Shown here piece by piece: positions 1 to 38,395 of a DNA stretch of 64,000 nucleotides. The notes under the pieces were generated by a model. The model searched no databases and was not told the origin of the DNA. It was given only the letters and a program-made list of their open reading frames with translations. Position numbers and translations under genes: made by a program. Position 1 is the stretch's first letter, and each line of letters starts with the position of its first letter. The stretch spans positions 9,734,001-9,798,000 of the forward strand of contig JAYWIR010000001.1 of the NCBI GenBank assembly GCA_036172245.1. Reading direction: 5' to 3'. This DNA is from Raillietiella orientalis (lineage: Eukaryota).

Positions 1-58
1 ACCATAGTTATACAATATCCTGAATGAAAAGCACTCGGTTTGATAAAGTCTGCTGGCA

Positions 59-592
59 TCACACATAGGTCACCCAATTACTTCCATCTTCTGGACCAAG
101 GTAACCACATATGAGTAACACTATGTCTGTAATCCACCATATTCCTAATCCACCAAGAGTTAACAATTTGCCCACAGCCATGCCTGTATATCCAAGACAA
201 AATCTGTCCATGCCCAAGAATCCCATTAAGAGACTATACAACAAGGTTGTTGTAAACAGATGACCTGTATATCGTATGCATGGTATACCATCCTTGAAAA
301 ATGTGCGGGGCCCGAAGCACTCAATATTTGGCAAAACTGTACATTTTACCGATGTATGTTCAACTTCATGATACTTTTGACCTCCAAATTTCACACAACC
401 ATAATTAAGTTGTTCACGTAAAGTTTCATTTCCATGAAGATCTTCGGGTTCATCACAATCAAGAAATTCCAAAGGTAGGAAGGAGCAGTTCACTAAGGCG
501 GAATGGGGCTCGTAAACTGCTCCACAACTTTCATTGAAGCAAGGCTGTTTTGCCAGTACTGTGCAGACAAAACTTAACAATAGAATATACAT
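59..592 (-). CDS. TM2D2: TM2 domain-containing protein (TM2D2/amaretto-like), 177 aa
   Basis: Uninterrupted ORF with an N-terminal signal peptide, a Cys-rich ectodomain (LPLEFLDC...YGCVKFGG...[13 protein letters not shown]) and the TM2 domain ([44 protein letters not shown]), ending PEDGSNW. Confidence 0.93.
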
Positions 593-699
593 ATAAAGGG
601 AATTCCTTTCCTATGATACAAAGATATTTCACGAAACAAGCAGGCCTATCAACACATCCAATTTAACGAGGTTGCCTGAACGGTTTCCGTTTCTCCTAA

Positions 700-1010
700 G
701 TGCTCACGTTAGATGCACGTCCTCGGAGATAACGTGTTTTCATTACTTCTAAACATCCCTTTTGCTGAAAAACATTATGCATTTCTTACTCTTACCTGCT
801 GCGATGCTTGTAAACTGCTGCATTGCACCTAGCAGGGGTACGTTTCAGAAAATCACCACTGAACAGCCACATCTCGGGTGCAGCAACTTCTTCCCGTGCA
901 CGTCAACAGCCCCGCGCACTTCTGCCAAACTTTTTCTCTTAAGACTATCCACTCCACCCCAATGGGCTGCAGTGCCGTTTTGCCTTCAGCAGCAAGGTAA
1001 ACCACGAAAA
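700..1010. promoter_or_regulatory. CpG-containing patch upstream of the TM2D2-like gene, candidate promoter
   Basis: Local cluster of CpG/ACGT words (cacgtt, cacgtc, cccgcgc) in otherwise CpG-poor DNA, directly 5' of the minus-strand gene. Positional inference only. Confidence 0.3.
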
Positions 1011-2039
1011 CTTGAAAAATAAAAACCCTGTTTTCAAATGATTTTCTCTGAGCGTGTTTTTCTGGGGGGGGGGGAGGAGGAAATCGTTTTGAAAAGATAA
1101 TGGGAGTGCTTAGGCTTTACCAAGCCCGAGCTCTGATGGTTTGGCACATTCTTAGAATCACTGGGATCTTAGCAATTTATCTACTGCTCCAGTTTTTTGT
1201 TTTTTTCCTTCTTTTGCACATACATTGAAAATGCACAGTTGTGCTAGTGCCACAGAAGACATGAATTCGGTATGCTTAAGTTTTCGGGGCAATGACATGT
1301 TTCAAGCTAGAAAAGCAAGAAAAGTTTGATGTGTATTTATAAATGTAAACCGTCCAAGAGGGATTTCAAAGTAATCCCTAGTGCAAATAAATCCAGCAAT
1401 ACATTTTCCGTGTAACTATCTAATTCACTTTTACGCAGCGTTTGTTTATTCAGTTGGTTTAGCTTGCTGGCTTTATGAACAGCATCATTCAAAAACATTT
1501 CTTGATGTGCATGATACTCTAACGGTGATTAGCTATAACAGCTGCAATAGTTCATCCCTATTGCAAACCTTCCAATGTTCTCTTCAGAGTAAGTTAACCT
1601 GAAATCAATTAATCCGCACAGAGTACACTATGATTCATCGGAATGACAGAGGAAACAGGATTCATGTAAATTGTCCACGAAATATAAGGTCGGAAATGTG
1701 GAAAAGATGCCTTTATTCCTTAAATGCCTTTTTAATCCCATGATTTACAAGTTCAATAAGTTGCAGCACAAAATGATCAAAACCTTATATTGTCATCCAA
1801 ATACGCACCACTTGGAATCCGAACTGAGTAATAGTAGAAAAAAATACATTCCGAGAAACAAATCGCTTGATGCAATGTTTCTTGCTGCATTTATTGATTG
1901 TCATTATTTCCTTTGTTTTTAAAACTCACATCTTCAAAAGTGGCATAGATGTAGTAAAGCATTCTTTATCACTGATTTTAAAACAAGTCAAATTGGAAAT
2001 AAGAAACGAGTGTCTTTAAAATAAGGAAGGATAGGGGCG

Positions 2040-2790
2040 TGTGGTTACGGTGGTCTCCGAGCGTGGCACCATGAGCACTCAGAAGGAATCGACTCAGTGC
2101 GTCGTGGGCTCCGACTTCACCCCACAAGATGACGCTGGTTGGCCTAGATTCGTCCGAGTGCGGCACTGGTAGCGGTTAAAACCGGATGACTCCGATGAGG
2201 GCAGGGACAAATGGGAGTCGACCTCCGGGTCATTCCAGGAATCAAGGAGAGGGGAGCTCCCCCTCCGGTTGTGAACGAGCGGACCCCCCATTCCGGAGGA
2301 CCCTCCGCGTCGGACTGATGGAGTAGGTGTGTCGCCACCACCTCTCCAGAGAGTGCAGAGAAACCAGCCGATCCCTTCGGGGAAGCTGCGTCCTTCTGAA
2401 TTTCGGAAGCGTCCCTTCGGGGTTCTCTTCAGAAGAGTAAACAGGAGCGGATCCCTTGCGGGGGATCCATCTGGAGAAGAAATTCCTGGATCGGATCCTT
2501 TCCGGGTTCCCTTCAGTGAAGAAAAAATGGAGCGGACCCTCCCGGGGGTCCTCCGGAGAGAATAAGGGAGGAGAATTCCCTTCTGGATTCCCCTTCGGAG
2601 ACAACCAGGGTGGAGGTGATCTCCATTTCCGGGGATCTCTCCCCAGGCATGAGAGGAACGGACTCCGAGTCCTTCCTGGATTCATAGGGCGGATCCCTCC
2701 CGGGAAATTCTATCTTGAAGAATACCCACCTCGGGTGGAGTGGAACCGTGTCGAAGAACTGCGAAGGCAGAAAAGGATTTCCATCACAGC
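2040..2790 (+). mobile_element. GC-rich structured insertion made of a tandem hairpin array (SINE-like or LTR-like, unclassified)
   Basis: Sharp GC island in AT-rich DNA. Starts TGTGG and ends ATCACA(GC). Flanked by AGGGGCG (2033-2039) and AGGGGTG (2791-2797). Contains more than 12 stem-loops. Diverged homolog at 16320-16808. Confidence 0.7.
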
Positions 2791-5700
2791 AGGGGTGCTT
2801 TATTGAAAGTCTCAATCCTCACTAATATATGTATTGATGTATAGAATAATTTCAGAAAAAATAACTTTGATTTTAATTATAAGTTTACAGTATCTGGGAA
2901 TTGTGCAATAAAAATACAGATATAGATCATTCTCAATTGTTATTATTTATTTTTCTGGGCTACTTCTGGTTTATATTTCTCCTCCAAGAGAAGAACGGAG
3001 ATTCTGAAAAGTTTGTCATTTTTGATATTGCTTGTTCTTATCAGAATGTGTTTCCGTGTTCTGAAATGAGCATCCGAAGGATTTGAAAATTAATAGTTAT
3101 CAGTTTTGTTGTAAATGTAAATTTCTTTTATTTATGCTTAGGCAACAGTTACCAAAAATACTTTTGTTTGAAAAAAAAAAGAACTTCATAGAACCAAGTG
3201 TACTACAAAAGATTATTTCGAATCACTTATTTTTAATTCACTTAAGAAGAATGACTATGAATTGCAGTTTTTTCCCTTCAAAATTCAAGTGCCGAAATGT
3301 GTTGGAGTTATGCAAGGTACACATCATTATTTCGAGCATACTACACATATATCTTCTATCTTAGAAATCTCTATGTTGAAAATCATCTTAGCCTGTTCAT
3401 GAGGAACAATGCTTCAATGTTTCTTTAGGTAGACAGAAACAGCACCTATTCTCCAACACATATTTGTCAAGTTTGATTTTTCACACATTTATCGAAACTT
3501 GCTTTAACTAACAAGTTCGAAAACGGTTTTATTATTTTATTTCTTTTAGAGCATAAGGCCGTAACAAGGAAGATTAATTATTCTGTTTCATTTCTGAAGT
3601 GATGATCAATAAAACCAAACACATCAACATGAACATTAGGTGAGTAAGCTAATGGCACTGTAAGAATCTTTGAATGCAGACAAAGGTAATTTCTAAAAAG
3701 TCCATATACTTACCAAAATTAAAAACCATCTCTGCAGAAATGAAACAGAATCACATTTGCTTAGATTCACAAATACAATCCTTACTTGAAATCAAGAGTA
3801 CATTATTTAAACAAGATCCAATTGATATTCCCTTTCTACTTTATTTTTCGTCATCTCCAATATTGGTCAAAGCTTCCATTGGAATCTAAATTGCTTTTCC
3901 CCTTAAATGCCTCTTCCACGGTAATCTGATTCGCTTTTCTCATTTCTGATATTGTCGGTTTTCCGATCTCTGATACTGAATTAGCTGCAAATGCGCTTGT
4001 ATTTGATTCTTGCAAGATAATTTTTATATATATTTAGATGATTTGGGGGAAAAGTCAACTACTCTTCAAAGTGCTTCCTCTCATTGATAAACTGTGTATT
4101 CAATATGCTAAATAGAAATATAAATTGCTTTCATTTCTATTTGAAATACGCTAATATACTGAATATCCCTCATATTAAATAAAAATGCAATTTTAAAATG
4201 TTTAATTATTAATGATTTGAGTGATTTGACATGATCTTCTGAAGTGTCTAAAATTATGCATATTTAAGAGAGCAAACAGGCAGAGTCACAGAATGATCGT
4301 CTTTTTGTGTGTGAAGAGAGAAGAAAAGATATATTAGAAGAGCTTTATTAGAGCTATGAAAATTTCATTAGCTTTTTTCAATTGATGGCTTACTACCCAT
4401 TCTGTTTACGATACTTTTGGACTTCGATAAGTTTGAGCTTACGCAAAAATGGGGCTTTAATTCATATCAAATTTTGAATAATGAAATGTATTCGATTTAA
4501 GTTCCTCTTATTTTATTTGATGTTATATGCACTGCATTCATATTTCCTTTTTGTTTTCAAATAATTAGACTTTAATACAATTTGAATTCTGAGAAATTTA
4601 TATCATTATTACCAAAATAATGTGCATTTTTGTTTTGACCAGGAAAATGCAGTACAGAAAAGTTTTTTAAATATGTCTAATTTGAGATCTCTAATTAAAT
4701 ATAGAATTTTTGCACAATCTGTAATATCATATAAAGCGTTTTTCCTTTTTCTTTCTACTATATTGGAATTTATAAATACAAAAAGTTTATGATTTCGCTT
4801 ATTACAGAGAACTTGTTGAGCTATAAGAAACACACTAATAAAACAATACCAACGGATATTATTTTATTAATTATTTTTTGCTTCTACAGACCTAAATTTT
4901 TTGGGAAAGTAAATTTCATTGATTGCTCATCTGAATTCGAAATATACATTATGGTAAGTGGTAACTGCGCCACATGAATTCAAAACTGTCACGGATACCT
5001 CTAGAAAGAACATGGAGGGAACTCAACAAAGTGTGTTGTATTCGTTAAACATTGTTTACGGTATTATCACTTACGAGTAGTAAAGTGTATATGTGATATA
5101 GTATTGTTATTTGTTATATAATGAATTAGTATTTTATTATACGGTAGTAGATTTAGATCGTAGCGTGTTTTCAATTACTTGTATTGTAAGCATCGGAGGT
5201 TGTAATCAGCCAATGCATGTAAAACTCTAATTCGTGTTTCCTTTCGTTACTGTTTTGGATGGATTATTTGGCGAGCCAGCTTTATATTTTCATTTATGAC
5301 CAAATAGCATCTCATCCAACATATGTAATAAATTGTGTGGAATTTATGTTATTGTATACTTTATAGCAGTTTTTGTGCTTAGTTTTATGGAACTTTTAGA
5401 TGAGTCTCTTGGTTCATAATACTCAAGCTTTTTGAGTAAAATTTACTCTAGTATCCTTTTTTGTTCATTTGAGAAGAGTGATCTCCGTTTTTATGAAATG
5501 CAGTCATGGGAGAGCAATAGCTTGTTTCTTTTTATACAGTGTATACAGTGTAGCAAGGTATTGCGTTGTTGATGCTCGAAGTTTAGCAAACAGAGTTGGT
5601 ATTTAAAATGGGTGACTTATGTTGATTATAATATATTACATAAAATTCGCATTACATAAATATTACATAAAAGTTTCCCTTCAGTTTTTTTTGAATCTTT

Positions 5701-5919
5701 TTTATTGTACAGAAAATGAAACTCCTTACAACCCGAATTACTTGATTTTTGCCTGCTTTAATTTTTTTTGAGATTTGCATGTTGGGGTTATTGGTCATTA
5801 ATTTTGCAGTAGTACTATACTATATTTGTTTACATTAAGCTACTGTAATGTTAATGATTCTTTTGTAAATAATTTTTCCAAATTGAAGCTTCAAAAAAGT
5901 GATTTTATAATGGAATACG

Positions 5920-8900
5920 ATGGGAGAAACTGTGGATGTATTATCCAAAAAGTGTTGTAATTGTTCAGAATTGCCATTAGAAACTGTTGGGAAGACTAAA
6001 GTCTATGTAAAGTGAGTGAATCAAACCATTAAATTTTTCTGCATTGTATTGATTTCCCTGTAACTAAAAAATCAGACGAATAGTTTGGAGGAAACAAATC
6101 AGAAAACTTCGTCGTCAAAAAAGGCGTCAAAAATTAGCAAAAGCATTATCTGCAGAACGTTTGAAAGGTTAGTTTATTAATTACTTGGGTATTATACATA
6201 TTGTGCATCATCACAGTGTTTTATAAAAGTATTTTATTTGGAATTGAACAACTTCTATTGCTGGTTACATAGCTCTAATGTTTCAATTATATAAAAAGTA
6301 TAGGAAAGTTTGTTTGCTTTTATTTAATCAGCAGATCCAAATTAAAGCTTCTGATGTGTAATTTACAGTGCATTTACAGGCACAACATCATTCCAGTTGT
6401 GCACATTTTTAAGAAGTCTAGTGCGTTAACTTTGTAATTCTTTTGATTGCATATGTGTATGTGTAGGTATTCAGAAAACTTCTTTGCTATGCAATCAAGT
6501 AGTCATGGTTTTTAAGTTTGTATCAGTATTTAATGAACTGTATCTTACACTGAACTCGTCATGAATGTGCCTTGAAATTATTTAAATTTACGAAATGACC
6601 CTTTGATTTTGTAACATTGAGTTGCATGCAATCACAATCAGTAAGGTCAGCTATTTGTACCTAGCAATACATTGTCTAATAAGATTAGTAAGATTGAGTT
6701 TGCCATTGTGAAGTAAATCCAAGTACATGTCTTTGAGTGGGTGTATGCAAATGTCAGTGTGAAGTTGAAGAGGTGCTAGTGATAAAAAATTGATGTATAA
6801 CTGAAGTTATAAAGGAAACAGGAAATTCATACTATTCAATGAATTGTCTTGGTTAATGTTTTCAAAGGGATTTCAAGCCCTACTCCATTTCAAAGAATGG
6901 GTTGCCCTGTTAGATCCTGTGAGTATGTATTCATTTATGAGGTGTTTTCAGTTATTATCAGAGGAAACAGTACTAGGTAAATAACTTAATTACAAAAGCG
7001 AATCTTTTGTATGTTCTTAAGATCTTCAGATATGCTCATGTGTAAGTATTTGGTTGAATCATTTTATTTTGATTCGATGTGAAGTATCCAATTTTTCATT
7101 GGATCTTGAATTTTGTTATTGAGAATTTAAGTTTTTGAGAATGCAGCCATTGCATTCAAGTATTCATTTGTGTCATTAATGAGCATCTTTACTATCGTTA
7201 ATTAAAAATCTTAATGGCTTCTTAGAAGATTATCTTGATTTTTTATGTATATTTGATTGATTTATGCATGAACAAGTAGTGTAGCAGTCAGATTAGCATT
7301 TATGTAGTTGAAAATAAATGTTGGGGTTTCTTTAGTTTTCTTTTTTTTAGTGTGTGTGTGCATCAGCCGTTTTTATGTATTTGATTGAAAACATTTGTCT
7401 CTATGGAGTTCATTTATACAGTATCAAAGTCAAGATGTGCTAACACACCCTGTAAGGTCATGGATATCCACTATGTAGCAATTGTTTTTTTTTTTTTTTT
7501 TTTTCGTTGTATTGGAATTCCCATTGGTCTGCCATTGATAGTATGCTTAAAGTATATACAGAATACTCAGATTAATCATGAAAGTAGATCTGCTTCCAGC
7601 TTGTTTTTTTGTCAATTTTTTTTATCAATTTAATTCTGGATGTCATTTTGAAGATTTTCCTTGGTTTTTGAAAGAGAGCCTTGTGCCTTATTTATTTTCG
7701 CCTTTTTATTATCCTAGTTATTGTCGATGCTTTTTATGTTGTTTACATTCTCAAGAAGCATATTCGATGTTCAGGTATTCTGTTTACAGCTACAGTTATC
7801 AGTGTTCAATTTTGCAGTTCATGAGAACTTTGAAGCACCTAGAAAATAATGCGATTGAGTTGGTAAAGGTGTGTGAAATCTTAATATTTTTGTTGAGCTG
7901 ATTCAGTCATCTTTGCTCATCAATACTTATACAAAGAAAATTTTCAGGGATACATTATATCATGCTTAAGTAAGCATTAAGTTAGATCCCAAGCATATAA
8001 GTCTCATTAAGTAAATCTCAGCTTTTAGAAATTGATTCTTTCGAGCATATAATTTTTTTGATTTATGCATGTTAACTGACTAAATCTGTTGTACAGAAGT
8101 TAGTTTCTTTTGTATGCAAATATCAGAAATGATCGTTAAATTTCCAAATTAATGAATTATAAAATCATTAAAATAAAGTTATGAGTAATAGGAAATTTTC
8201 AGTTTTATATTCTATCTTGTCCCATTCGTTTTCCTGTAAGACATAGCATTTATTTGTATAGTACTTTTATAATGAAATGCTTATGTTGCGTAGAGATTTG
8301 ATACATAGTGTACTAGTGTTATTTTCAGTAAATCAAATTCTGTTCTTAATAATTGGCATAATAATTGCAAAATACTGTAAATTAGTGGCTACACTCACAT
8401 ATGTATCATTTCATTTATGTAAAGCATGAAATGTAGTTCGTGCATTGCTACATCACTAGTGTATATTCATGATGCTACTGTGTTGAGTGTTTTTCACCAT
8501 TGGTGTACTACAGAAATTTTGACAGAAACATGCAAGTAGCTTTAATTTTGAAATTTTTAATTAAGAAAAGTAGGTTTTGTAGAAAAATAGCATGCATTGT
8601 CCAGGGGTTTGATAACTGTTGAACAATTTTATGGCATTTTTCATTTTTGGATTGTATTGGAGAGAACAGAAAAAGGTTTCCTCAGTTTGGTTAAAGAATC
8701 TGTCATATTAAGAAGTAAGTGACTTTGAATAAAAAGAAAAAAAATCAGTTGGTTAATCCAAATTATTACTGGGATTTTGTTTGTAAGATTATTCCTGTAA
8801 ACGTCAGTAATTCGTCCAAGGTTGCTGAAGTTGTAAAAACCTTACTTTCTTTGGCTATGGGGAAGCTGGTTGAAATTTGTTCATGGACTAATCAGTACAT

Positions 8901-11900
8901 TATAGCTCAGGAACGCAGAGAATCATCTCCCACGTATCAGCTTTGGATTTTGGAACAAGAAGAACTAGAACGCCAGCAGGAACAGATTCAAAGTGAATTG
9001 CAATTAAAGCTGCATCAGGAGTGGCTGGAAAGAGAAAAACAAGCACAAGCAGATTGGAATGAAAAGAGATGCAAGCAGCAAATGATGGATGCTAATAAAG
9101 AGGCTGAACAAGTAATAATGTTATTTGATGATCGTGTGAAATTAGTGCATCTAATCTGCTCTGTTACTAAATTAACGAATTTCAGAAAAAAATCCTTGAT
9201 GAATGGGAGGTGGAACTTCAACGACAACTGGAGGAGCAGGCTCGTCGGGAATCAAAGAAGAAGGAATACAAGGTGAATTGCTCTCTATGCTGCTGGGGTA
9301 GACAATTAATGGGAACATAACCCAACACATTTGTTGCTGCGTTGCCTTCCCCAAGTCTTCTATTGCTGCACCTGTTTTTTGCCCTGTCACTTTGCCCTTT
9401 GAGGGCTTTCCATGGGGCATCTTAGTTCATGCAGATCTTGTCAACCTTTGTTCTGTCCCAGGAGTCTCAGCTGCGTGATGCCTGGGCTGCTCTTGGACAG
9501 GTAGGATTCCATGTATACTGCAATGCCAGCCCTACGCTTGTGCAGGATCCCAGTCATAATCCAATGGCTCCCCATTTTTACTATACAGATGATGATCGGG
9601 AAACTTGCCCATTTTTCCTACGTACAGCAGCATGTCGTTTTGGAGACCGTTGTTCCCGGTTGGCCTGTACATTCTTATGTATTTGTATTAATGATATTTT
9701 TTGCAGATTGCATCCACCATGTACCAGTAGTCGTACTTTGCTTATTCCTAACATGTATTCTCATTTTCGTTTTGAGTCTATGAGAGATGAGTATGATACT
9801 GATCTTAATTTAGAATATGATGACCAAGAAACGTATCAGCATTTTATGTATGTAGAGTGCGAAGTATAAAGAATATTTCATCAGCATATCTTCTAAATAT
9901 TCTATAGAGATTTTTATGAAGATGTATTGCCAGAGTTGCGAGCTGCTGGGGAGGTTATTCAGTTCAAAGTTTGTTGTAACTACGAACCTCATTTGAGAGG
10001 GAATGTATATGTTCAGTATAATACAGAGGCTGAAGCTCGCAGAGCATATGCCACCTTCAATGGACGCTTTTATGCAGGACGTCAGCTGAGTCTTCGATTC
10101 GCCATTATTGATTCTTGGAAATCAGCCATCTGCGGTGGAATACCTGTTTTTATTATTCTGTTACCGAATTTTTGCATTGTAGGACTGTTTCATCGGAATC
10201 GCTGCCCCAAAGGAAAAGGTTGCAACTTCCTGCATGTTTTCAAGAATCCTAGAGATGAGTTCAGAGATGCAGACTTTGACTGGTCAGCACCCAAGTCAGA
10301 CAAGTAAGATGAAGAATATAATCTTCAGGTGAACAGGACGGCCTTTCAATTCTAGGAAAAGAGAACGCATGTCTCGGCGTCGTTCGAGAAAGTCGTATTC
10401 GAGGTCTAGATCCCACTCAGGAGAGAGCTCCCGAGCAGTGTCTCGCAGTCGCTCTGCTTCATACTCTCGCTCCCATAATACCTCGCATTCTCGTGCGAGA
10501 TCCCGATCCCAGTCAAAGTCAAGATCCAGTTCATATGGTGAGCTTTGATTTTCTTTCTTCGGGTAATGTTGTTCCTCAATCAGATTCATGTGGAGAGTCG
10601 GTGGCACGGTCTCCTAACCGGGAAAAAGTACGTCCTCACAAAGAGCCACGTTCTCACAGGCGATCCCGTTCACCTAATAATGATTCTGCTTGGAAAGGCC
10701 ATAAGGGATCACGGTCACATAGATCCGGATCACCCAGAAAAAATTACCGGGAGCGAAGATCGCGATCCCACCACAGAGGAAGGTCTCATTCACGACGATC
10801 GCGTTCAAGATCCCACGGAAAATCTCGGCATCATCATGCATCTCGATCTCGGCATTGGAAGCACAGATCACCTTCTTCTCTTGGTGCATACCGATCCAGG
10901 AATCGTGGCCGATCTCGAGCCGAACATCGTTCACGATCTCGATGCAAAAAAAGATACGACAGTTCAAGATCCCGCTCACCTTCAGGAAAAAAATCGCGAT
11001 CTTGTTCAAGACGCAAATCACCACTTGGCAATTCCTTTGCTGCTGCCCATTCACAAGTAGCTGATGGAAGGTTTCCTCAAGGATCGGCGGATGGAAAGCT
11101 TAATACATGTGTGGATCCTCAGCATGCTTATTTTGCAGGCTTTCCAACAGGAATGCAAGGCACAGAGTATCAGAGGCTGCTGACATATCCCAAGGATCCC
11201 AATATGCTTCTTGCTGGTGAAAGTGCCCTTCCTGGACCAATCCGTGGGAAACCAGGATTCCAGGCGGATGGTGGAAGAATTGTTTTCCATTCTCAAAAAG
11301 CAGCCACCAGTATCTGCAAGACAACTCCATCCTTGTTTCCCGTGCCAGTTGGTTCCCAGGAATACTCATCCTTGAATGCACAGAAATACGAGGATCGAGG
11401 TTTTCCTTTTGCTCCAGATGTGCAGCACGCTGAAACTGAGAGACATTCTGATAATGATCAGTTTGCATTTGCCCAGGAATCGAGCAAAAGCCAGCTGCTG
11501 ACACCATCAGAAGCTGAGGCCAGCCACGAGGATCATTTGCAGGACTCTTATCCTGCACAAGGGGTTTTGGAAAAAGAATTTTCCGCACATACCTTGCCAG
11601 CAGAAAATTATGGATTCTCTTCTGGAATGCAAATATCTACCTCACCCACGCGTTCTCCTGTTTCTGCAGTTTCTGTTGACGCCAAGGAAACTGCGGAAAT
11701 GGTGTCCGCCTCTCCACAGTCAGAAAGTTCCAGTTCTTCGGGTACTGAATCATCTTCTGAGGATGACTCACCGACGTTTCATCATCCTGAAACGAATGCA
11801 CCCACCAGCAACGTGGTTTCTGCAGGAAAAGCGCTCACTGATGCTTTGATTGTTACTTCAGGTAATCTGCACCTTGCGTCGCTGCGTAAATTGTTTTGTT

Positions 11901-13621
11901 TTACCTTTTGCACGGTAGGATCTGATCTTTGGACGAGATCGGTTCTTGAGCCGAGCGAAAAAACTCGTGTTTCACATTCCCAGCCCTTATCCTTTGAAGA
12001 TGATAGATCGTCCGTATTGGCGAAGTCACGGCCACTTCAAATAGAAACAGAGACTGTTTCCTTGTGCACTTCGACCGCTTCAAAGGATAACCTTCATACA
12101 GTAGTACCATCTAAGTTTTCGCCGTCATCGGAAACAACGATGACGTCCATACCGTCTTTCATGGAGAAGAAAGAAGAGGTGGCACATGGTGCTGCTCAAA
12201 CCAATGCAGTGACCGCTGCATTATCGTCCCTTCCTATAGTCTCCGTTCAGGAAGCGTGCGTGAAGGAATTGGCTGTTGTAAAGGAGCCTTTGACAAAAGA
12301 TTTACCGGCATCGAAACTCAAAGAAGCTTCAGTTAAAAAGGACGGAGATTCATTAATAGCTCCTCACCCTGTAGCACCGCCATCCCAAAAGGGGGTTTCT
12401 TCTTTTCCGTTATCACCATCCATTTCGTCTCCCTTTACTGATATGGTGGCTCGATTAAGTTCCGCCGCCAGACCTATTTCCCCCATGCTGGCCGTGAGAA
12501 AGCCACAGTCAGCCAAGTTTCCTGTTCCTTATCCATCTCCCTACCCAGTTCAGTATCAGACTCCGCAGGAGAAACGGCCTCTTGGTCAGCAAGTCGCAAC
12601 GACTACAGCAGCCGCCCCAGCAGCTGCTTCCGCTTCAGGTTTCGAACTCGCCCCCAAAACACCACCAGCCTCAGGCAGCCAGGAATACTCACAAAAATCG
12701 CTGGCATCTTTGCAGGAAGAACCGACGATTCCTCCTGCACCTTTTGGATGTAGGGAACCTCCTGATACTGACAAAGCAAGAAGCAAGCTTGTGAACGAGC
12801 AAAAGCCTTTGGTAGCAAGTGTACCAGTTGAGGATTCGCCAGTGGCGAATTCCCTTGACGAGGCCGAAGTTGTCGAGCACAATGATTCCTTTTCCGAAGG
12901 ACCACCAAATGACTTGTGCTCAGTAAACGCCGAGCCCGGGCTTGCCCCCGTGGCCCCATCGGAAGTTTTGCCTCAAGAAGATTCGGACGAGGAGCACGCG
13001 CCACACGGAGATGCATCTGCGGCTGTCGAGCCCGAAGCCGAAATCCTGCAGCCATCCTCTCCCGAAGCCTCTAAAGTTCCGCATTCCCCATTGGTGATCA
13101 GTTCCAAGCCACGAAGTAGGAAACGAAGCACTTGTTCCGTTAAGGATGCAGAGATGCAGTCAGTTGACGCTAAGTCCACGAAAGAAAGCACAAAGTTACC
13201 TTCGCCAACTGTCATGTGCACGCGATCCTTAAACAGGAAAACAGTTTCCACTCCCAAGAAGGGTTTGCCCAAAAGAACTCAAGTGTCAGTGTCTCCGAAA
13301 AAGGGGAGCAAGTCAGAGGGCACTAGCGTAGCGGAAAAAGTAACAGGTAGCAGGTCGAAACCCGCAACCAACGAGAAAGAACAGCAGCAGAGAAAGCCAC
13401 AGTCGAGAACAGCAAAAAGTGTGTCCGTCGTAAGTGATAGTGCGCAGAACTTTCCCCCGTCAGGTTCACTCCGTGTGCAGACTCGCTCCTCGACCCAAAG
13501 CATATGCTCGCGATCCGTCGTCGAGGCGACTCCGGAAAAAAACTTGACCAGTCTTTCCACCAGGAAGAGAAAGGTCGAAGGAAGCGCCCGAATTTCGAAG
13601 AAAAGACGATCTGCCATGTAA
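5920..13621 (+). CDS. ZRSR2: U2AF35-related splicing factor ZRSR2/Urp-like (CCCH-UHM-CCCH-RS) with a long low-complexity C-terminus, about 1426 aa
   Basis: Manually spliced coding exons 5920-6011, 6076-6167, 8906-9111, 9186-9272, 9462-9500, 9546-9658, 9707-9847, 9908-10134, 10183-10303, 10356-10537, 10584-11861, 11919-13621. All introns are GT-AG, phases are consistent, total 4281 nt. Motifs: RKLRRQKRRQKLA, LHQEWLEREKQAQ, CPFFLRTAACRFGDRCSR.H, DEYDTDLNLEY, DFYEDVLPE..GEVIQFKVCCNYEPHLRGNVYVQY, FNGRFYAGRQL, WKSAICGLF..CPKGKGCNFLHVFKNP, then an RS domain. The first exon is less certain than the core. Confidence 0.92.
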
Positions 13622-13644
13622 ATGGATATGGTACGCAGATATTG

Positions 13645-13650
13645 AATAAA
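13645..13650 (+). terminator. AATAAA polyadenylation signal of the ZRSR2-like gene
   Basis: Canonical hexamer beginning 24 nt after the stop codon, followed by T/GT-rich sequence. Confidence 0.6.
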
Positions 13651-13705
13651 GTTTTTTGTGTATTGCCCTACATGAATGAATTTTATACATACAGTTATTT
13701 GAAAG

Positions 13706-13851
13706 GAAAAAAAAAAAAAAAAAAAAGAAAAAAAAACCTAGAAAGAAAAGCGCGCGCGAAAGAGAGAGAGAGAGAGGAGAGAAAAAGAAGAAGCGTGCTT
13801 TTTTTCTGTACATTTTGTGACCGAGTCGTTGCAAAAAAAAAAAAAAAAAAA
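13706..13851. repeat. Poly(A) and (GA)n simple repeats at the compositional boundary
   Basis: Two A runs of about 20 nt and a (GA)n tract, read directly. Confidence 0.85.
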
Positions 13852-15996
13852 TGAGACCCAAAACAATTATGTTGAAAGACGTGTATTGATCAAGAGTTTC
13901 GGTGTGAACTGTCTGCTAATCATAAAGAATGAACTGGTGTGCTGAAGTGAAACTCTTTGCCTTTGTACCTTACAGTTCATCCCTGTAACGAATGGGGAGT
14001 GTTTTCGAGGTAGTGGAAGAGTAGCAACGAGGCGGCTTTGACGTGCGTCATGCAGGAGCCGCAGCCAGTCCGATGCCTAAGAGGTGCGCTGCTTCCTGCG
14101 AAGTGCTGCGTGTTCGAAATGGCGCCGAGAGTAGAGAGAGTGAACCCCGAGCAGGTAGAGGGCTCAGTGGACAGTAATGGACCAGGCGACAAGTTTACCG
14201 TGTCCCAGAACAGGGAAACCCCGACGGGAGCTTTCGCTTCCCTTCCCGTGACCGGCAGAAGGGAAGCCTTCCTTCACGCCTCGATTTGCCCCCGCGCCAG
14301 CTCGCTGACCGGAACTTTCAAGAAGGAGCTGGCGAAAGCAAAGATCGTGTGGCTCCCCGTGGTCCATTTCGAGTGGCAGGTGACGAGAAGAAGAAAAACT
14401 CATGTACCTGAAAATCGAAAATACAGTAACTGCTGAAAAGAAACTTGTCCCAGTTTGGGGTCCTGGTGCGCGTTGGGTGCGGTTGCGCATGCTGCTGTTT
14501 TGTGTGTGTGTGTCGTTTGACTTGCATCTTTGGAATGCAACCATTCCCAGTTGTTTTTTCCGGGGGACCCTGGTTGAGGTGGCACCGAGTGCCGAATGGC
14601 GTTGGGCTCTGCCCAGCTCGCTTCCCGCGGGTTCGGTCCACCCTCAGGCGTTTTCGCGCCGGCCACACGGCTGTGTTCCCTCGGCCGGGGAAGCTGCAGC
14701 GGAGGCGAGCACGTCCTTACGGATCGCCTCCGTCCCCCGCGCGGAGGAAACCACTGATTTTCTGGAAGCCGATGGTGGGTCGGGGGGAGGGGAGGGGGTA
14801 ACGGACTGTCCGAAGGGGTGGGAGAAGAACTCGGCTGGAATGAGGGCCGTTGTTGAGTGCCTGGGTGCAGGGCCACGAAGCCCCTGCCCCCCGCTTCCCC
14901 CTCCCTCCCTGCCGAAAGTCTCGGTGGTGTTCGGGTGGCCTGCGGGGGAGTAGACCAGGTCGGAAGGGCGGATTCCTTGGTTCAGCGGGGCGACCGGCGA
15001 AAATGGCGAGGAGGCAAACGTCCCTCGCTGTGCCAGGACGTCTCCCGCAGCCCTCAAGGTGCCCGGAAGTGGAACCAAGACAAGCAAGAAAAGAGGAAGG
15101 CTCCCTCCGTTGAAAAGGAGGAATCCTCGCGTGGGGCTGTGCTACCCCAGCTCGGGGCCAGCTCCAACGTGTTCCAACGCCGGGCGTAGATGACAAGGTG
15201 CCTGGGGAAGCGACGTACGCCTGCTAGGATGGCCGCGGTGCCGGGTGTGTACTCCACGCGGAAAGATGCCGGGAGATCCGGATGCAGGTCGCGTCTCTTG
15301 GAAGGGAGTCACGGTCACCCCGCAACTTCGTTCTTCCGGATTCTTCTGGCCTCGTAAGCGCCGCCGATCCCCCTCCACTCGCAACGAGGAGATCCGACCT
15401 CGAGTTCCCTTCCTGGAGACGGTGGAGAATCCGAACGGGCGGCTGGAGACGGAGTCAGGGGGAAGCCTCCAAGACTCCTCCCCTCCTACCATTTTTTTTT
15501 TAGTCCCCTCTGCTTCCGCATTAAACAGAAAAATCGGGAGGAGGCGCGCGAACCACCATTTCTCTAGCAACGGTCCAATCCTCTGTCCTTCCTTTTCCTC
15601 TTTTTTGCTCGAAACCAGGGATGCGTTCTGCTGGATGGTGGCCACAAGACCAGCATCTCCAGCGCCGCCAGGCATCTGAGGGAGGCGGCAGCGATCCCGC
15701 ACTTCACTCCGTGCTGCGGCATCCTCCTCGGAGCACGTCCGAATGGGGGTGCAGAGCTGGGGCGCGCCTTCCGGGAGCGAGGCCAATCTCAGGATTTGGG
15801 GCGCCCGTTCCGGTTCCCCCTCCAGGTCACATGTGGCACAACAGAGGTCCCCTGCTCACGGAGGGTTCTGCAGGTGAAGGGTGAGGAAAGGGCCAGAGGG
15901 AGCGGAAGGACGGGAAGGGCTTGGCCCCGGAAATGGGGAGGTCTCCTCGCAGTCCTGCGAGGGTCTCGGGAAGGGCTTGCCCGAGGGCAGCCATTC

Positions 15997-16979
15997 CGCC
16001 CTCTACAGGAGGCGTCCCTTCGGGGTTCTCTTCAGAGGAGGAGGAAAGAAGGACGTTTCCCTTGCGGATTCCCGTCGAGGAAGAAATGAGGAGCAGTCCC
16101 CACAAAAAGGGGGGTCCCTTCGGAGAGAATAGGCAGTCGTGCGGGCGGTCAGGTCAGCTTCTCCTTATGCTTCGCAGCGCCACCTGCGTCGCTAGGCGGA
16201 ATCGAAGCAGCGGCAACCTTCCATGCGCTCAACGCGCTCCTCTCTTCGCATCGAGGATGGCCAAAGGCCTTTTCGGACAGAACCTCGTTCGGACTTGCCC
16301 GCACTGGCAGCAACAACCTCTGCGCGCGGCACCGTGCGTCGCGCTTCAGAATCCCTCCCGAGGAAGGGTCGACTCCGACAACGGAAGACGCGCCGTGGGT
16401 TCCAGTTCCCCCCGCTAGATTACTCTGGTTGGCCGGTATTCGGGTGCGGCACTACTGCAAGCCGGAAACCCCCGGATGCCCCGTCGCCTGGCCCGGATCG
16501 GAAGCTGACTCTCCGGAGTCCTTCCAGGAATCCAGGAGTTCTTCGGGGTTCCTCTCCGGTCGGGAAGATGGAGCCGTCCTCCTCTTCAGGAGGACTCTCC
16601 ATCGCGCACCATGGAGCTGGCTGATGCCTCTCCAGAGTGCGAGAAGAGCGCTGTTCCCTTCGAGGAGCGCCCTTTACAGAAGGAAACGCCCCTTCGGGGT
16701 TCTCTTCAGAGGAGGAGGAAAGAAGGGACGTTTCCCTTGCGGATTCCCGTCGAGGAAGACATGAGGAGCAGTCCCCACAAAAAGGGGGGTCCCTCCAAAG
16801 AGAATAGGCGGCCGTGCGGGTGGTGGCCAGATCAGCTTCTCCTTATGCTTCGCAGCGCCACCTCCGTTGCTAGGGCGAATCGAAACGGCGGCGAACCTTC
16901 CCTATGCTCGACGCGCTCTTCGCACCAAAGATGACCAATGGCCTTTTCGTGCTGAACCTCGGATCACAAAAAAAAAAAA
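15997..16979 (+). mobile_element. Head-to-tail partial tandem of the hairpin-array family
   Basis: 15997-16287 is repeated at 16668-16961 (period about 670). 16320-16808 aligns by eye with 2057-2566 (ggcacc, gtggg, ctggttggcc, gtgcggcact, ttccaggaatc, cctctccaga, cccttcggggttctcttcaga, cccttgcgg, gagaata). The copy ends ATCACA followed by an A run. Confidence 0.8.
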
Positions 16980-19094
16980 GAAGGTCAGCAGCCGTCTCCA
17001 TTCGGACCGCTTTGCGAGCCCAGTACTGGCGCGCAACCCTCGAAAGCGGAGCCTCCCCTGAGCGCCAGCACGAGCTGCAAGCCTGCACGACCCAATTCGC
17101 CTCCCGGCGCGGACAGCGGCCAACCGCCCCGACATCTGTCTCTGGGAGATGTCCTGAAGGAGAAGCAACCGCCTGAACACTCTTCGCCGAGCCGGCTCCA
17201 TCTGTCTGGAGGGCAAAGGGCCCGCCGACGCGCACGGAGCGGCAGCTCTCCCGCGCCGCTGCACCCGGGAGGCTAGAAGGCGAGCGAACTGGCGAGCGCC
17301 CCCGTCACATTTCACTCCCAGGAGGAGAAGAGACCTCTTCTCCCCCTTTTGGGGCGGAGTGGAGCCTCGAGCGTGCCCTCCAAGGAGCTATCTGCTCCTC
17401 CTTTGAGAGCGGATGCTTCGGCGTCCCCTCCCTAGGTGGAAGCACCTGGCTGCCGGGGTTTCCGGTGCGATCAGCGTCGGCACCCCATTCCTCGGGGCCA
17501 GCTGGGACCTCCGTCTGCTACAGGCGCGACGGACCTCCCCCGCACCCCTTAAAGGACCGCAGCGACGCTCTCCAGGCGGGCAGTCTTCTGCTCTCCAGAA
17601 GTCACCGCCGAGGACGCGCGGCCAGCGCCGCGACGGCGCGTGGTACGTAGCCGCAAGCCGAATCCCAGGCGCAGCGTGGGGAGGTCACCCGCATGGCGGT
17701 CTCGCCTGTGCGAAGAAGTCGCATCGGGACAGATCGGCGTTCCGCGCCAGCTTCGAGCACGAGGGAGCGCCGCAGACCCCCCGTCCCCACCCTCCCCTCG
17801 TCCACTTCCCCCTTCTCCTCCCCTCCGCACTTTCTCAGCAACCACCCTGCCTGTCGGCGATCCCTCTTCCCCAAAACTTCTGACTTCCTGTCTTCCGGCT
17901 CCCGCCATGTTTGTCCAGTTTGGATGACGCCCCGGCGCACAGGGCGAAGAGCCGCCTCCCTCCCGGGTCAGCAGAGAGGAGAGTCCTTCCTGCCCCCGGA
18001 AGCTACCTGCGGAGATCTGAGGGGCGAACCCGGATGGTGGTGGGCCGACCACCACCCCTCGGGTCACTCGCGCGCACGCCCGCGGGTTCCCCGCTGCGGC
18101 TGGAGGGCGCCGGGTAGGCCTCTCCCGCGATCCCGAAGGATGGTCGCTGCTCTGCGGCGTGGGTACGCCTGCCCCGACGCGCACCTGCGGTCTCTGGACC
18201 CCGGGGGGTTTCCTCGCCTGTCTCTCCTTTCCGCGATCGGACGGCAGGACTTCTCGCACCGCGTGAACCGTCGGGACTCCTTCCCGCTTAGGGAGTTGAC
18301 AGGATCTGTGCGTGGGGGGTGTCGGCTGCCTCCTGCGGACCAGTATAGCGACCGCAGTACAGCAGCCGCCGACATTCTCCGTTCGTGGCTGCCACTTTCC
18401 GGGCGCTGCAGGAATCGCCACGAGGCGCCTGCAGCTCCTCTTGTTTGGGGAAGGAAGCGTCCGTCTTCCCTGGCGCGAAAAGAAGCAGGTTCTCTCCTTT
18501 TCACAAAAAAAAAAAAAAAAGGAAGAAAAATCTGCAGTCGGGATTCATCTTCAGAAAAATCTGCAGATGAATCCCGACTGCATTCCGGTACGTGGATGCT
18601 CCCTCTTTCTTGTCACCAGAGGTCACCTCCAGGAGTCGACGACTGGGGCCACGTCAGACGGGCTTTGGGGGGAGGCGGGAGTTCCGCTCGCGGCTGAGTC
18701 CGTCGGGCGGAAAGTTCCGGAGCACAGGCGAGAGGACACGAGGGGTCGGGACGGCTCTCGGGGACATGGGTCAACAGCGGCGACTGCATGGCGCGGCCCA
18801 CCCCGGAATCCAGGGTAGGGTGCCGCGAGACTTCGAGGCCGCCTCCAGAGCCTTGCGGGGGTTCTATGGACCACGGAGGATCCGAGCTCTCTCACCCCTC
18901 CCAGCCATCTTCAGGACGGGAAGGAAGAGGTGGGGATGGCCGCGGGAGTCTCCCAGCGGCATCCGCCGCACCTGTGGTCCAGGAGCTACGCTGTCTCGGT
19001 GGCGCCGGGCAGCCTACGCATGCACGTTCGTGTGTGGGTGCACGGATGAATGCAGAGAGGAGGCAGGTGCGTAGGCAGTAGTGACGAGCTGGGG

Positions 19095-19650
19095 GGAGGG
19101 CAGAATGAGGGAAGAATTGGAGATGGAGGAGGAGGACGGGGAAGAAGAGTAAAACGATGGAAGAAAGGAAGAGAGGGAAGAGGAGGAGGATGGAAGGAAG
19201 GAAGGAGGAGGAAAGGATGGAAGGAAGGGAAGAGGGAGAGGAAAAAAGGAGGAAGAGAGAAAGGAAAGAAAGGAGGCAGAGGAAGAGGGGAAAGGAATAA
19301 AGGAAGGAAGAAGAGAAGGAAGAAAAGGAGGAGTTAAAGAGGAAGGAAAGGAGAGGGAGGAAGGAGGAAGAGGAAGAAAGGAAAAAGGGGTGGAGGGAAG
19401 AAAGGAAGAAGGAAAGAGGAAGAGAAGAGGAAGAGAGGTATGAAGAGGAAAGAAGGAAAGGAGGAGGAGGAAGAAAGGGGGAAGGGAAGAAGTAGGTAGA
19501 GGAGGAAAAGGATACATGGGAGGGGGGAGGACGACAACGACGAAAGGTGGAAGAGGAAGAAAGAGAAGAAAGGGATGAAAAGAGGAGAAAGTAAGAGAAG
19601 AGGAAAAGGAAAGAAGGAAGAAAGGAGAAGGAGGAGGAAGAGGGATCGGA
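19095..19650 (+). repeat. Long polypurine (GA-rich) tract
   Basis: About 550 nt almost exclusively G/A. Confidence 0.9.
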
Positions 19651-22334: not shown

Positions 22335-22495
22335 CAGGAGGAGCAGTGGAAGGGGGAGGAAGGAAGAGGAAAAGAAGAGAGGAGGAAGGGAGGGGAAGGA
22401 AAAGAATAGAGGAGGAAGAGAGAAGGAAAAGAAGAGGAAAAGAGGAGGAGGAGGAGGAGGAGAAGGAAGGAAGGAAGAGGAAGAAGGAGAGAAAT
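22335..22495 (+). repeat. Polypurine tract
   Basis: GA-rich low complexity. Confidence 0.85.
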
Positions 22496-27539: not shown

Positions 27540-27850
27540 TTCTTATTCCCGTTCTTCCATTTCCACCTCCTGCTTGTTCCCTCCCATTCTCACTCTTCGT
27601 CACCTCTCCTTCCTCCTCCTGTTTTCATCCTTTTCTTCTCTTCCTTCCTCTTCGTCCATTCCTCCATCTCCCCGTTTCTCCCACTTAGTCTTCTTTTTCC
27701 TTTACTCCTCTTCCTCCCCTTCCTCTTTTCTTTCTCCTTCTTCCCTCCTCATCCTGTTTTCATCCCTTTCTTATCTTCCTTACTCTTCCTCTTTCCTTTC
27801 TCCTCCTCCTCCTCCTCCTTCCTTCCTTCCTCCTCTTTCTTTCTCCCATT
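27540..27850 (+). repeat. Polypyrimidine tract (purine tract on the minus strand)
   Basis: CT-rich low complexity. It shares the specific word ttttcatccYtttcttctctt with the reverse complement of the 19.5 kb tract. Confidence 0.85.
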
Positions 27851-28050
27851 CCTTCTGTGGATTCTACGGGGGGATCCCAGTCTACGTTGTCTTCTCCCTC
27901 TCCACCTTCATTCCGGTTCCTCCAATCGTGCAATCCAGATCGGGCTCGGGGAGAACCGTTGCCATCGCGACGGAATTCCAGGAGGTCCCGGGATCGGTTC
28001 CACCGACGAGTCCGGGCCCCGCCCACATAAATCACGGAGGATTTCCTTGC
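27850..28050 (+). mobile_element. Decayed LINE RT fragment
   Basis: LLWIL...SNRAIQIGLGEN...GIPGGPGIGS, then HIN in a shifted frame, resembles WI..FL.NR.Q.V...GVPQGS.LGP...YIN. Confidence 0.35.
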
Positions 28051-31970: not shown

Positions 31971-32329
31971 GCCTCCGAGACCAAGCAGAATGGACATCCT
32001 TCTAGTGGGATTATAGTAGGAGGAAATTCTTGCAGTGTGGAGGTCGCCTAGTCGCCTGAAAGTCTTCGCGTCGGTGCGATCCTCTGGCTGCGGCAAAGTC
32101 TTGCGAGCCGATCGAAACACCACATAGGCGTTTCTGTAGTGCAAGTGGCCTCCGCGCCACTACCGGCTGTGGCCACGCGAGCGAGGTTCTTGCACTGCCC
32201 TGGATGTGAGGGCAGTGACCCCAGGGAAGCGTTCTCCGGGAGCTCCCTGCCTTCTGTCCCCTTTCTCCAGAGCCCTCCTTCCCTTCCGGGAGGCGTAGTT
32301 TTTTCAGGAGATAGATGTGGATGGACTGT

Positions 32330-32500
32330 CTACGTCTGGAGGGAGAGCTTCGCCGGCTGTAGGGATTTCCCGAAGGGTCTGGGGAAGTAGGGGTCCCGGT
32401 CGGTTCTTCTGACATTGGTCGGTCTGCTCCTCCCCCCCTCCAATTCCGTTCTTAATGAAAATGCTGAGTGGAGGGGCGGGAGGAATACGGGGCGTCCCTA
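32330..32500 (-). mobile_element. Decayed LINE RT fragment
   Basis: IPPAPPLSIFIKNG...QKNRPGPLLPQTLREI resembles IP..W....LI.K.G....NYRPISLL....K. Confidence 0.3.
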
Positions 32501-33559
32501 CGCCCATCGCTCTTTCGCGGACAAGTCGTAGGTCATCCGCCGTCCTCAGGGTGGTCATGCGTTCAGGAGGCCCGCAGCTTCTCTGTCTCGTCTGCGAGCA
32601 GCAGCAGTGCTGTAAGCGGCCGGGTGCGTCGATAAGGGCGGAGATCGCCTTTTGTGCCGCCACCACCCGGGTGGGCCCTTCGGGGAGGTCCGCTGCAGAG
32701 AGCAGGGGTCGTAGCGCCACCAAGATGCGAGCATACTGCTGCTGCTGCTGCTGCCCTGCTGGGAGAGAAGCCGACGTGCCGGGGGGGAACTCTGGGGTGC
32801 TCTGAGGGACCCAGCCTCTCCGTGGTGGTCCCTCATCGACCTAGGGTTCCTCCTCCCCTTTCGGCGAGGGAGCCGCCTCATTGGAGACGCGGGAAGCAGA
32901 GCAGAGAAACGGATATACCGCTTTTTCCTTAAACGCCTCCGGTCTTCCCTGTCTCCAGGACTTCCTGGGGATGGTTGCCCCTTTAGGGGAAGGGAATGCC
33001 CCACCGGGCCGCATCGGCTTCGTCCCCCTTTGCCCTCCTCACAATGGGCTCTCCATGAGCTCTGCCTTAGAAGGATCCCCGAGGTCCAGAGGGTCTTCCT
33101 CCTTGCCTCGTTGGTGGCCGCCTCCTTCAGGTTGGCGGATGTGTGCATCCGGTTCCACGTCTCTTGGGTCAGTCCTTCTCCCAGGCCGCGTCTTCCTCAG
33201 GGTCCTCATGCTCGCGCGCCTCCCGCCCGTGAGGTCCAGCCAAAGGACGTCTCGCCCTGGACCTTCTTCGCCTCGCTCCCGCTCCTCCCGCCTTCCGGGT
33301 TCGCCTCTCACGGCCTCTCTGCCCCCGCGGAGACCCCCCATTCTCACCGCGGGGGTGCCCTTGGCGGCCTGGAGGACTACGCATCCTTTGTTTTTGTTTT
33401 TGTTTTTTGAGAGTAGTCGCCCTCGTTTTTCCCGGACGCTGGGTCTCCGCGGACCGGGGTCAGGCGGGAGCGCGGAAGAGGAAGATGCCCCCAGGAAGAG
33501 GGCCCTCACTGTGTCCTCTTCCATCTCCTTCACGCCCTTTTGATTAGGGGGGCAACCTG

Positions 33560-35233: not shown

Positions 35234-35697
35234 CTTCCGCCCCGGGCGACGCCAGCAGCCTAGGCGGCCCCTGTGGCCCATCACGCCTTCCCTGCCATGG
35301 GCAGCGCCAACCGCCGACTGCCTTCCGCGTTTTTCTCCGGGGACTTAGGATCGACTGATCCACGCTCAAAGGTTGTTCGCATGGAACCCTTCTCAACATC
35401 AGACCTCCAGGATCTCACTGGAGTATTTGCTACTACCACCAAGATCTGCGCCGACGGCGGCTCCAGACGAGCTCGCGCCCAAACCCTTCTGCGCATACCG
35501 TCGCGACTTTCCTACTCGCCGGAACCTGAGGAACCTGCCGTCCTCCCGAACGCGCCCGAAAGGCAGGAATGGCTCTGTCCCGGCGGTTGGGTATAGGCTC
35601 GACGCTTGAGTGCCATCCATTTTCAGGGCTAGTTGCTTCGGCAGGTGAGTCGTTACACACTCCTTAGCGGATTCCGACTTCCATGGCCACCGTCCTG
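35234..35697 (-). rRNA. 28S (LSU) rRNA gene fragment, orphan pseudogenic piece
   Basis: The reverse complement contains universal LSU sequences: CAGGACGGTGGCCATGGAAGTCGGAATCCGCTAAGGAGTGTGTAAC, CTCACCTGCCGAAGCAACTAGCCCTGAAAATGGATGGC, GCAGATCTTGGTGGTAGTAGCAAATA, GAGAAGGGTTCCATG and TCAGTCGATCCTAAG. The core is 35343-35697. Extension to 35234 is inferred from CCCCGG...CCGGGGCGGAAG closing the following expansion helix. Confidence 0.93.
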
Positions 35698-35699
35698 AG

Positions 35700-38179: not shown

Positions 38180-38395
38180 CTCCTGCTCCTCTCCCCTTCC
38201 TTCTTTTTCTTTCTTCCTCTGTTGTCCTTCCTCCTTCCTTCCTTCCTTCTACTTCTCCACCTCCTGTCTTCCTCTTCCTCCCTCCCCCTTCTTCCTGTTC
38301 CTCCCTCTTCCATTTCTTTCCTTCTTTCTTCCTCCCTTCCTCCTCTTCCTCCTTTCTTCCTCTTTCCCTCCTCTTCCTTTCTTCTTCCTTTTCCC
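38180..38395 (+). repeat. Polypyrimidine tract
   Basis: CT-rich low complexity. Confidence 0.85.

Follow-up and report, generated by a model that had tools for sequence, protein, structure and literature searches.

A GC-rich repeat with an internal array of small palindromes at two loci of a Raillietiella orientalis contig

SVA elements are non-coding composites of sub-kilobase to kilobase size, in which a unique 5' part precedes a variable-number array of 35-50-nt GC-rich units and a tail. Retrozymes and the metazoan tandem hammerhead repeats are non-coding and hairpin-rich, can be tandem and yield RNAs. The A-repeat of Xist has U-rich linkers. Some families are known both as transposon-borne internal repeats and as satellites, an example being Tetris, a foldback element from Drosophila virilis (PMC4079207). 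Here we describe a 765-base element, called A, in a 64,000-nt stretch of the genome of Raillietiella orientalis (assembly GCA_036172245.1, contig JAYWIR010000001.1, positions 9,734,001 to 9,798,000 of the forward strand), hereafter the window, together with its diverged relative B in the same window.

We give an even chance to the reading that A, with its internal quasi-palindromic minisatellite, is one dispersed copy from a family of GC-rich, non-coding repeats of transposon or satellite origin. A is probably an ordinary, unclassified repeat. The two loci and their parts are as follows.

2036-2800, element A, GC-rich non-coding island, delimited by composition and by the nhmmer envelope 2036-2800
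2036-2365, 5' part of A, non-repetitive, with hairpins scattered through it, homologous to B 16303-16650
2249-2265, hairpin GAGGGG/CCCCTC in the 5' part
2321-2349, hairpin TGGAG..CTCCA in the 5' part
2366-2725, array of A, nine degenerate units of about 41 nt (U0-U8) with a double-unit period of about 83 nt
2726-2800, 3' tail of A, with CCACC-tcg-GGTGG and CTGC-gaag-GCAG
15938-16287, B1, the partial unit that precedes B2
16288-16990, B2, oriented like A, with three array units at 16680-16806 and a run of 12 A residues (A12) at 16968-16979

A repeated unit at two loci

Element A stands out from its surroundings by composition, with a GC content of 57.8% against 39.0% and 31.6% in its flanks and with sharp boundaries. 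Its observed/expected ratios are 0.76 for CpG and 0.47 for GpC. Three open reading frames (ORFs) of A matched no Pfam family, and for a 195-aa minus-strand ORF none of 135 candidates from a collection of 5.8 billion proteins reached E <= 0.01.

A has one diverged relative in the window, B, which lies in the same orientation: A 2099-2461 aligns with 16390-16742 at 66.4% over 381 columns (BLAST, E 2.35e-32), and nhmmer recovers the relationship at E 3.9e-27. Positions 2405-2483 of A also match 16008-16087, with 74.7% identity. A is a single unit. B consists of about 2.2 head-to-tail units with a period of ~671-675 nt, as seen from the alignment of 15997-16287 with 16668-16961 (86% over 299 columns, E 1.5e-82). 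The B1-B2 junction is direct, with no A-run, and B2 is followed by a 38-nt insert that contains the A12 run and then by ~45 nt of a third unit, which starts near 17005. Head-to-tail copies, the hallmark of a satellite, are thus present at B only, and ~2.2 units fall short of long satellite arrays.

A 21-nt block, CCCTTCGGGGTTCTCTTCAGA, is identical in A, B1 and B2 and covers the first unit of the array. The number of array units differs between the loci, with nine in A and three in B; according to the alignment, the A-specific sequence comprises one unit between U2 and U3, plus U5-U8. No similarity is detectable between the tails (A 2565-2800 and B 16807-16961). Besides A, B1 and B2, nhmmer found no further copies within the window at E <= 0.01. 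Sites of the CCCTTCGGGG motif at 20503 and 32281-32685 were considered and are not copies of the element. Two conserved motifs, used as search patterns, had no matches in metagenome contigs or in viral contigs. In prokaryote genomes there was a single match of 22 nt, in a bacterial metagenome-assembled genome, which was rejected as isolated, ~0.3 such matches being expected by chance in 596 Gb according to our estimate.

We propose that A and B would belong to a family with a repeat unit of ~670-765 bp, present singly at A and in a short head-to-tail arrangement at 15938-16990. A may have arrived by insertion, either through transposition of a non-autonomous element or through re-integration of an excised repeat unit. 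This insertion is deduced from composition only, because neither a target-site duplication nor a terminal repeat beyond TGTG..CACA was found. The longest repeats shared by the flanks of A are one 6-mer (AAGGAT) and three 5-mers, which is chance level for a comparison of 61 x 71 nt, in which ~0.9 six-mers are expected by our arithmetic.

The termini of A are of the LTR-like TG..CA type, with TGTGG at 2041 and CACA at 2786-2789. A solo long terminal repeat (LTR) with tandem enhancer-like repeats in U3 would suit both these ends and the size of ~750 bp, and AGGGG occurs two bases beyond each end, at 2033 and 2791. However, these AGGGG motifs do not abut the TG and CA, and a shared 5-mer is no more than chance would give. 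No paired LTR surrounds a coding interior, and no gag, reverse transcriptase or integrase domain was detected in the 295 stop-to-stop ORFs (>=110 aa) of the window. B is moreover a head-to-tail repeat of whole units, not an LTR-internal-LTR arrangement, and we regard a solo LTR as very improbable.

Marks of other transposon classes were looked for at the boundaries of A. Helitrons have 5'-TC..CTRR-3' ends, a 3' hairpin and an A^T target, and miniature inverted-repeat transposable elements have terminal inverted repeats with a TA or TAA duplication. The 3' boundary of A does not show a CTRR end with a T after it, and inverted repeats at the termini go no further than TGTG.

Another possibility is a non-autonomous retroposon, either SINE-like (short interspersed nuclear element) or an SVA-like composite, mobilised by a LINE (long interspersed nuclear element); its array would be of the VNTR (variable number of tandem repeats) type, and its hairpins might be recognised by the partner reverse transcriptase. 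The discrete GC island has the size of a SINE or SVA, the order of unique 5' part, VNTR-like array and tail is as expected, A and B share their orientation, and B2 has its A12 run close to its end. Yet A itself has no poly(A) or A-rich tail: its 3' end reads ...CATCACAGCAGGGGTGC and passes into AT-rich flank without an A-run. The 5-6-nt flank repeats at chance level, the meeting of B1 and B2 without an A-run and the lack of a reverse-transcriptase domain in any of the 295 ORFs also speak against retroposition.

The same is true of the searches for a parental RNA gene. ARAGORN predicted no tRNA gene, and the Rfam models of tRNA, 5S and 7SL RNA gave no match at E <= 10 in 1800-3000 or 15800-17200. 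Patterns for the A- and B-boxes of RNA polymerase III (pol III), drawn from their general consensus and allowing <=2 mismatches, occur 174 and 224 times in the window, compared with 267 and 281 expected, and none are at homologous positions in A and B. A retroposon thus appears unlikely. More generally, Rfam returned three matches for A (1800-3000) and ten for B (15800-17200), all far below the gathering threshold, and no hammerhead, hepatitis delta virus-type or other ribozyme family was among the matches at E <= 10 for either.

The array and its hairpins

The array at 2366-2725 was divided into nine units of 34-47 nt, each made of a short inverted repeat and a purine-rich linker. In the autocorrelation of the array, the top lag is 42 (0.384), and lags of 83/84 and 121-124 are also among the highest. 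Across 300 mononucleotide shuffles, the highest value in each shuffle averages 0.332 (95th percentile 0.359, largest 0.398). The observed 0.384 lies above the 95th percentile and short of the largest value; the ~42-nt periodicity is real yet weak. A direct repeat inside the array (2412-2464 and 2496-2548, 78% identity, E 6.6e-6) is offset by 84 nt, which indicates a higher-order unit of ~83 nt comprising two hairpin sub-units. At a minimum score of 30, A gave no result with Tandem Repeats Finder, the array being too degenerate. The array also matches its own reverse complement (nhmmer, E 6e-5). The hairpins and loops within it are listed below.

2373 and 2413, C(UUCG)G-type loops in CCCTTCGGGG
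2449-2468, U2 hairpin, the strongest, GGATCCCT-tgcg-GGGGATCC, -19.6 kcal/mol on the plus strand and -15.9 on the minus strand
2493-2509, hairpin GGATCC/GGGTTC
2534-2551, U4 hairpin, GGACCCT-cccg-GGGGTCC, -13.6 kcal/mol on the plus strand, reverse complement -12.4
2591, third C(UUCG)G-type loop, in CCCTTCGGAG
2612-2642, U6 hairpin, GGAGG.GATCTCC-atttcc-GGGGATCTCTCC, -17.3 kcal/mol on the plus strand, reverse complement -16.6
2618-2637, GATCTCC/GGGGATC, part of unit U6
2654-2677, U7 hairpin, AGGAAcGGACT-ccg-AGTCCTTCCT, -11.3 kcal/mol on the plus strand, reverse complement -10.9

The remaining five units fold at -6.6 to -9.0 kcal/mol on the plus strand, and their reverse complements at -6.3 to -10.5 kcal/mol. 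Outside the array, GACTCC/GGAGTC, TGGAG..AGGTG/CACCTCTCCA, CCACC/GGTGG and CTGC/GCAG are legible in A.

An earlier note on this DNA had described A as a mobile RNA built from a string of such hairpins. The hairpins that it named lie within a base or two of where it placed them, those outside the array can be read as it gave them, and its three UUCG loops are those listed above. It had counted about eight units of ~40 nt at 2405-2725; the repeated units are indeed present, and we divide them differently, as nine of ~41 nt that begin at 2366. Its claim that pairing is kept while the units diverge is borne out inside the array by the permutations described in the next section.

With tandem units in the 10-100-nt range and a copy number that differs between A and B, the array has the properties of a minisatellite. 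It would have grown or shrunk by slippage or unequal exchange, giving nine units in A and three in B. A coding repeat peptide was considered and rejected, as the units, at 34-47 nt, do not keep to multiples of three and there is no Pfam match. A cloning-vector polylinker, suggested by numerous 6-bp restriction palindromes such as GGATCC, GAATTC and CCCGGG, was set aside as a by-product of palindromic units.

Pairing on both strands

The two arms of a unit fit each other better than they fit the arms of other units. We took 10 nt on either side of each unit loop, joined them by a neutral loop and compared each arm's own partner with partners from the other units. On the plus strand, cognate arms have a mean of -9.52 kcal/mol, against -6.21 kcal/mol for non-cognate arms (30 of 20000 permutations as good), and on the minus strand the means are -8.40 and -5.13 kcal/mol (5 of 20000), in a test of n=9 units whose loop positions, taken from the cognate folds, favour the cognates. 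The changes can be followed at single pairs: the same stem position is T-A in U2 and C-G in U4, and a further contrast is that of C-G with T-A in U7. The arms thus co-vary among units, and they do so on both strands.

Folding was compared with shuffled controls. Non-overlapping hairpins (stem >=6, loop 3-8) were counted in A and in 300 dinucleotide shuffles. With G-U pairs allowed, the plus strand has 8 hairpins, compared with 9.18 +- 2.15 in shuffles (>=8 in 234/300), and the minus strand has 11, compared with 9.23 (>=11 in 80/300). With Watson-Crick pairs only, there are 4 on each strand, compared with ~1.55 in shuffles (>=4 in 17/300). The minimum free energy (MFE) of the whole element has a z-score of -1.53 on the plus and -2.27 on the minus strand (20 shuffles each). 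When folding is kept local (span <=40, 200 shuffles each), the array scores -1.61 on the plus and -1.70 on the minus strand, whereas A as a whole scores -2.15 (plus) and -2.86 (minus). Thus, there is a mild surplus of local self-complementarity in A, alike on both strands, and most of the visual impression of hairpins is due to its GG/CC-rich dinucleotide content. A scan for bacterial-type promoters and terminators, of no relevance to an animal genome, remained at shuffle level.

The two loci were then used as an alignment. RNAalifold on the two A/B sequences gives 93 pairs, 11 of them changed on both sides, figures that alone constitute no test. The MFE of the global consensus, compared with 100 column shuffles, has a z-score of -1.56 on the plus strand (8/100 as low) and -2.74 on the minus strand (0/100), and the structure conservation index (SCI) is 0.38 and 0.43, respectively, against 0.38 and 0.40 in shuffles. 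For local pairs (span <=40, 200 shuffles), the z-scores are -3.05 (plus, 1/200) and -3.01 (minus, 0/200), values that are possibly inflated as column shuffles ignore dinucleotides. Pairs changed on both sides are not in excess on either strand: there are 9 on the plus strand, compared with 6.9 +- 2.3 in shuffles (46/200 reach 9), and 3 on the minus strand, compared with 7.4 +- 2.7 (197/200 reach 3). The comparison of A and B shows that local palindromes are kept on both strands without a surplus of compensatory change.

These results bear on the alternative that A is a structured, possibly mobile non-coding RNA, whose array of stem-loops with GAA-type linkers would form a putative multivalent protein platform similar to the Xist A-repeat. 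The co-varying arms, the local palindromes conserved between A and B, the three C(UUCG)G-type loops, the conserved 21-nt block over the first unit, and the more numerous G-U pairs and lower cognate energy of the plus strand (-9.52 against -8.40 kcal/mol) all agree with it. Nevertheless, z-scores are equal on the two strands, the SCI of 0.38 is that of the shuffles, the number of hairpins is not above that of dinucleotide shuffles, A and B show no surplus of compensatory pairs and no Rfam family matches. Nor does B preserve the strong hairpins of A: B1b and B1c lack the outer GGAYC/GRTCC pairing seen in U2 and U4 and fold otherwise. We therefore consider a structured RNA improbable. The same low probability applies to the broader proposal that A and B represent an undescribed transcribed and possibly RNA-mobile family, in which tetraloop stem-loops with GAA-rich spacers would serve as a protein platform, an invertebrate counterpart of the Xist A-repeat, and selection would hold the stems together as the units drift in sequence.

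Template switching has been reported to create and maintain perfect stems and to cause multi-base compensatory changes (PMC8794818). Arm complementarity on both strands, together with co-variation among units, fits correction by template switching. For the repeat family that we favour, we suggest that what keeps the arms complementary would mainly be hairpin-templated or template-switch correction in replication and not selection at the RNA level, and the family would be without RNA function.

Several points weigh against this reading. Arm co-variation and the identical 21-nt block would also fit selection on a transcript, which would give similar arm patterns. All the evidence for a family comes from two diverged loci in one window, and A has neither a target-site duplication nor a terminal repeat beyond TGTG..CACA. 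To these are added the bias of the arm test towards cognate partners, the possible inflation of the local A/B z-scores, and the G-U pairs of the cognate stems, which are more frequent on the plus strand (8/69 pairs) than on the minus strand (3/59). As to the latter, the shuffles carry an equal energy offset between strands (-101.7 and -94.8 kcal/mol), and the excess of G-U pairs and energy on the plus strand is thus attributed to composition rather than to a strand signal.

The earlier note had read G-U pairs and cUUCGg loops as pointing to the plus strand, a claim that does not survive this offset and the similar z-scores of both strands. It had named, as outcomes that would refute its RNA, a lack of significant covariation among copies and folding no better than that of dinucleotide-shuffled controls. 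Covariation between copies does not exceed that of shuffles; folding shows a modest excess (z -1.5 to -2.9), whereas the count of hairpins with G-U pairs shows none. On these terms the RNA reading is close to refuted, with the low power of two copies. Retro-mobility fares no better, given the missing poly(A), the chance-level flank repeats, the lack of tRNA, 5S and 7SL matches and the uninformative pol III boxes. What stands of the proposed mobile hairpin-array RNA is that A is non-coding (three ORFs without a Pfam family, the 195-aa ORF without a relative), repeated at a second, diverged locus, unclassified among curated RNA families and equipped with a self-complementary array; its RNA nature, retro-mobility, plus strand and protein binding find no such support.

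Genomic context and comparison with known systems

Element A sits between two ordinary animal genes in the gene-bearing part of the window (1-14000, 29-48% GC); the window is eukaryotic and animal-like. The other features of the window are as follows.

62-610, minus strand, TM2D2/CG11103 (amaretto)-like ORF, single exon, 183 aa, with a TM2 domain
9426-13621, plus strand, CCCH/RRM/RS gene: CCCH zinc finger at 9426-9866, RNA-recognition motif (RRM) at 9897-10304, single 1099-aa ORF rich in Arg/Ser (RS) at 10322-13621
13700-13850, poly(A) and GA tracts downstream of the CCCH/RRM/RS gene
~14000-64000, block of ~50 kb at 52-69% GC, with CpG observed/expected ratios of 0.74-1.13, adjoining the DNA of 29-48% GC
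19232-19442, 22395-22473, 27607-27853 and 38194-38394, purine-rich GGA/GAA-type tracts and pyrimidine complements
35606-35708 (28S-like over 35340-35710), minus strand, degenerate 28S fragment, Rfam LSU_rRNA_eukarya, model positions 1218-1332, 88 bits
41353-41526 and 43885-44056, inverted repeat of 174 nt with 90% identity, enclosing ~2.4 kb of lower GC (52%)

The best relatives of the TM2D2-like ORF, from molluscs, nemerteans and arthropods, share 55-75% identity with it, and its named matches are from protostomes, cnidarians and one hemichordate. These identities indicate that no close relative of the source organism is among the named TM2D2 matches. The layout of the CCCH/RRM/RS gene is one that we take to be U2AF35/ZRSR2-like. 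Apart from TM2, CCCH and RRM, no Pfam family was found in the 295 ORFs of the window; the 14000-64000 block, apparently non-coding, has no Pfam domain in ORFs >=110 aa and hardly any internal repetition. The 174-nt inverted repeat in this block could mark a foldback element or a non-autonomous DNA transposon; the ORFs between its arms yielded no Pfam domain. The purine-rich tracts recur in the block, and the array linkers of A and B resemble them in kind.

The 28S fragment is the only Rfam match in the whole window and, being changed at normally conserved positions, it is probably a pseudogene piece. Spacers of ribosomal DNA (rDNA) are typically GC-rich, hairpin-rich and made of sub-repeats, and A could be an orphan spacer fragment, with sub-repeats of the intergenic or external transcribed spacer type, copied from an rDNA-derived GC-rich block. 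B does lie within the ~50-kb GC-rich, domain-free block that also holds the 28S fragment, but this fragment is 19 kb from B and there is no intact 18S, 5.8S or 28S gene in the 64 kb, so that an rDNA origin seems quite improbable.

As a GC-rich repeat family in an animal-like genome, A and B are unclassified and have no close relative in the databases searched. They illustrate that, in GG/CC-rich DNA, strings of hairpins, UUCG loops and G-U pairs occur near dinucleotide expectation. As hairpins arise at the level of composition, readings as RNA need both shuffled and opposite-strand controls. The co-variation of the array arms on both strands would offer, given more copies, a small natural case in which hairpin maintenance at the DNA level can be set against selection on RNA.

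Among known systems, the tandem, hairpin-rich and non-coding retrozymes resemble A and B, the latter being tandem at B, but no hammerhead or other ribozyme matched either locus at E <= 10. The likeness to the Xist A-repeat lies in about eight short GC-rich cores able to form small tetraloop-capped stem-loops between linkers (PMC10870365, PMC8887474). In contrast to it, A has no sequence relation, its linkers are purine-rich and its pairing is strand-symmetric. SVA elements share with A the succession of a unique 5' part, a GC-rich array of variable number and a tail, all non-coding; unlike them, A lacks a poly(A) tail, a target-site duplication and modules of Alu-like or retroviral origin.

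Tetris stands here for satellites derived from transposons and for transposons that carry tandem repeats internally. A differs from Tetris in its lack of long terminal inverted repeats (only TGTG..CACA is present) and of a known transposase partner, and in having a GC-rich unit in which each sub-unit is a small palindrome. Like A and B, Tetris-type families combine dispersed single units with head-to-tail arrays, are non-coding and contain internal short tandem repeats that vary in number.

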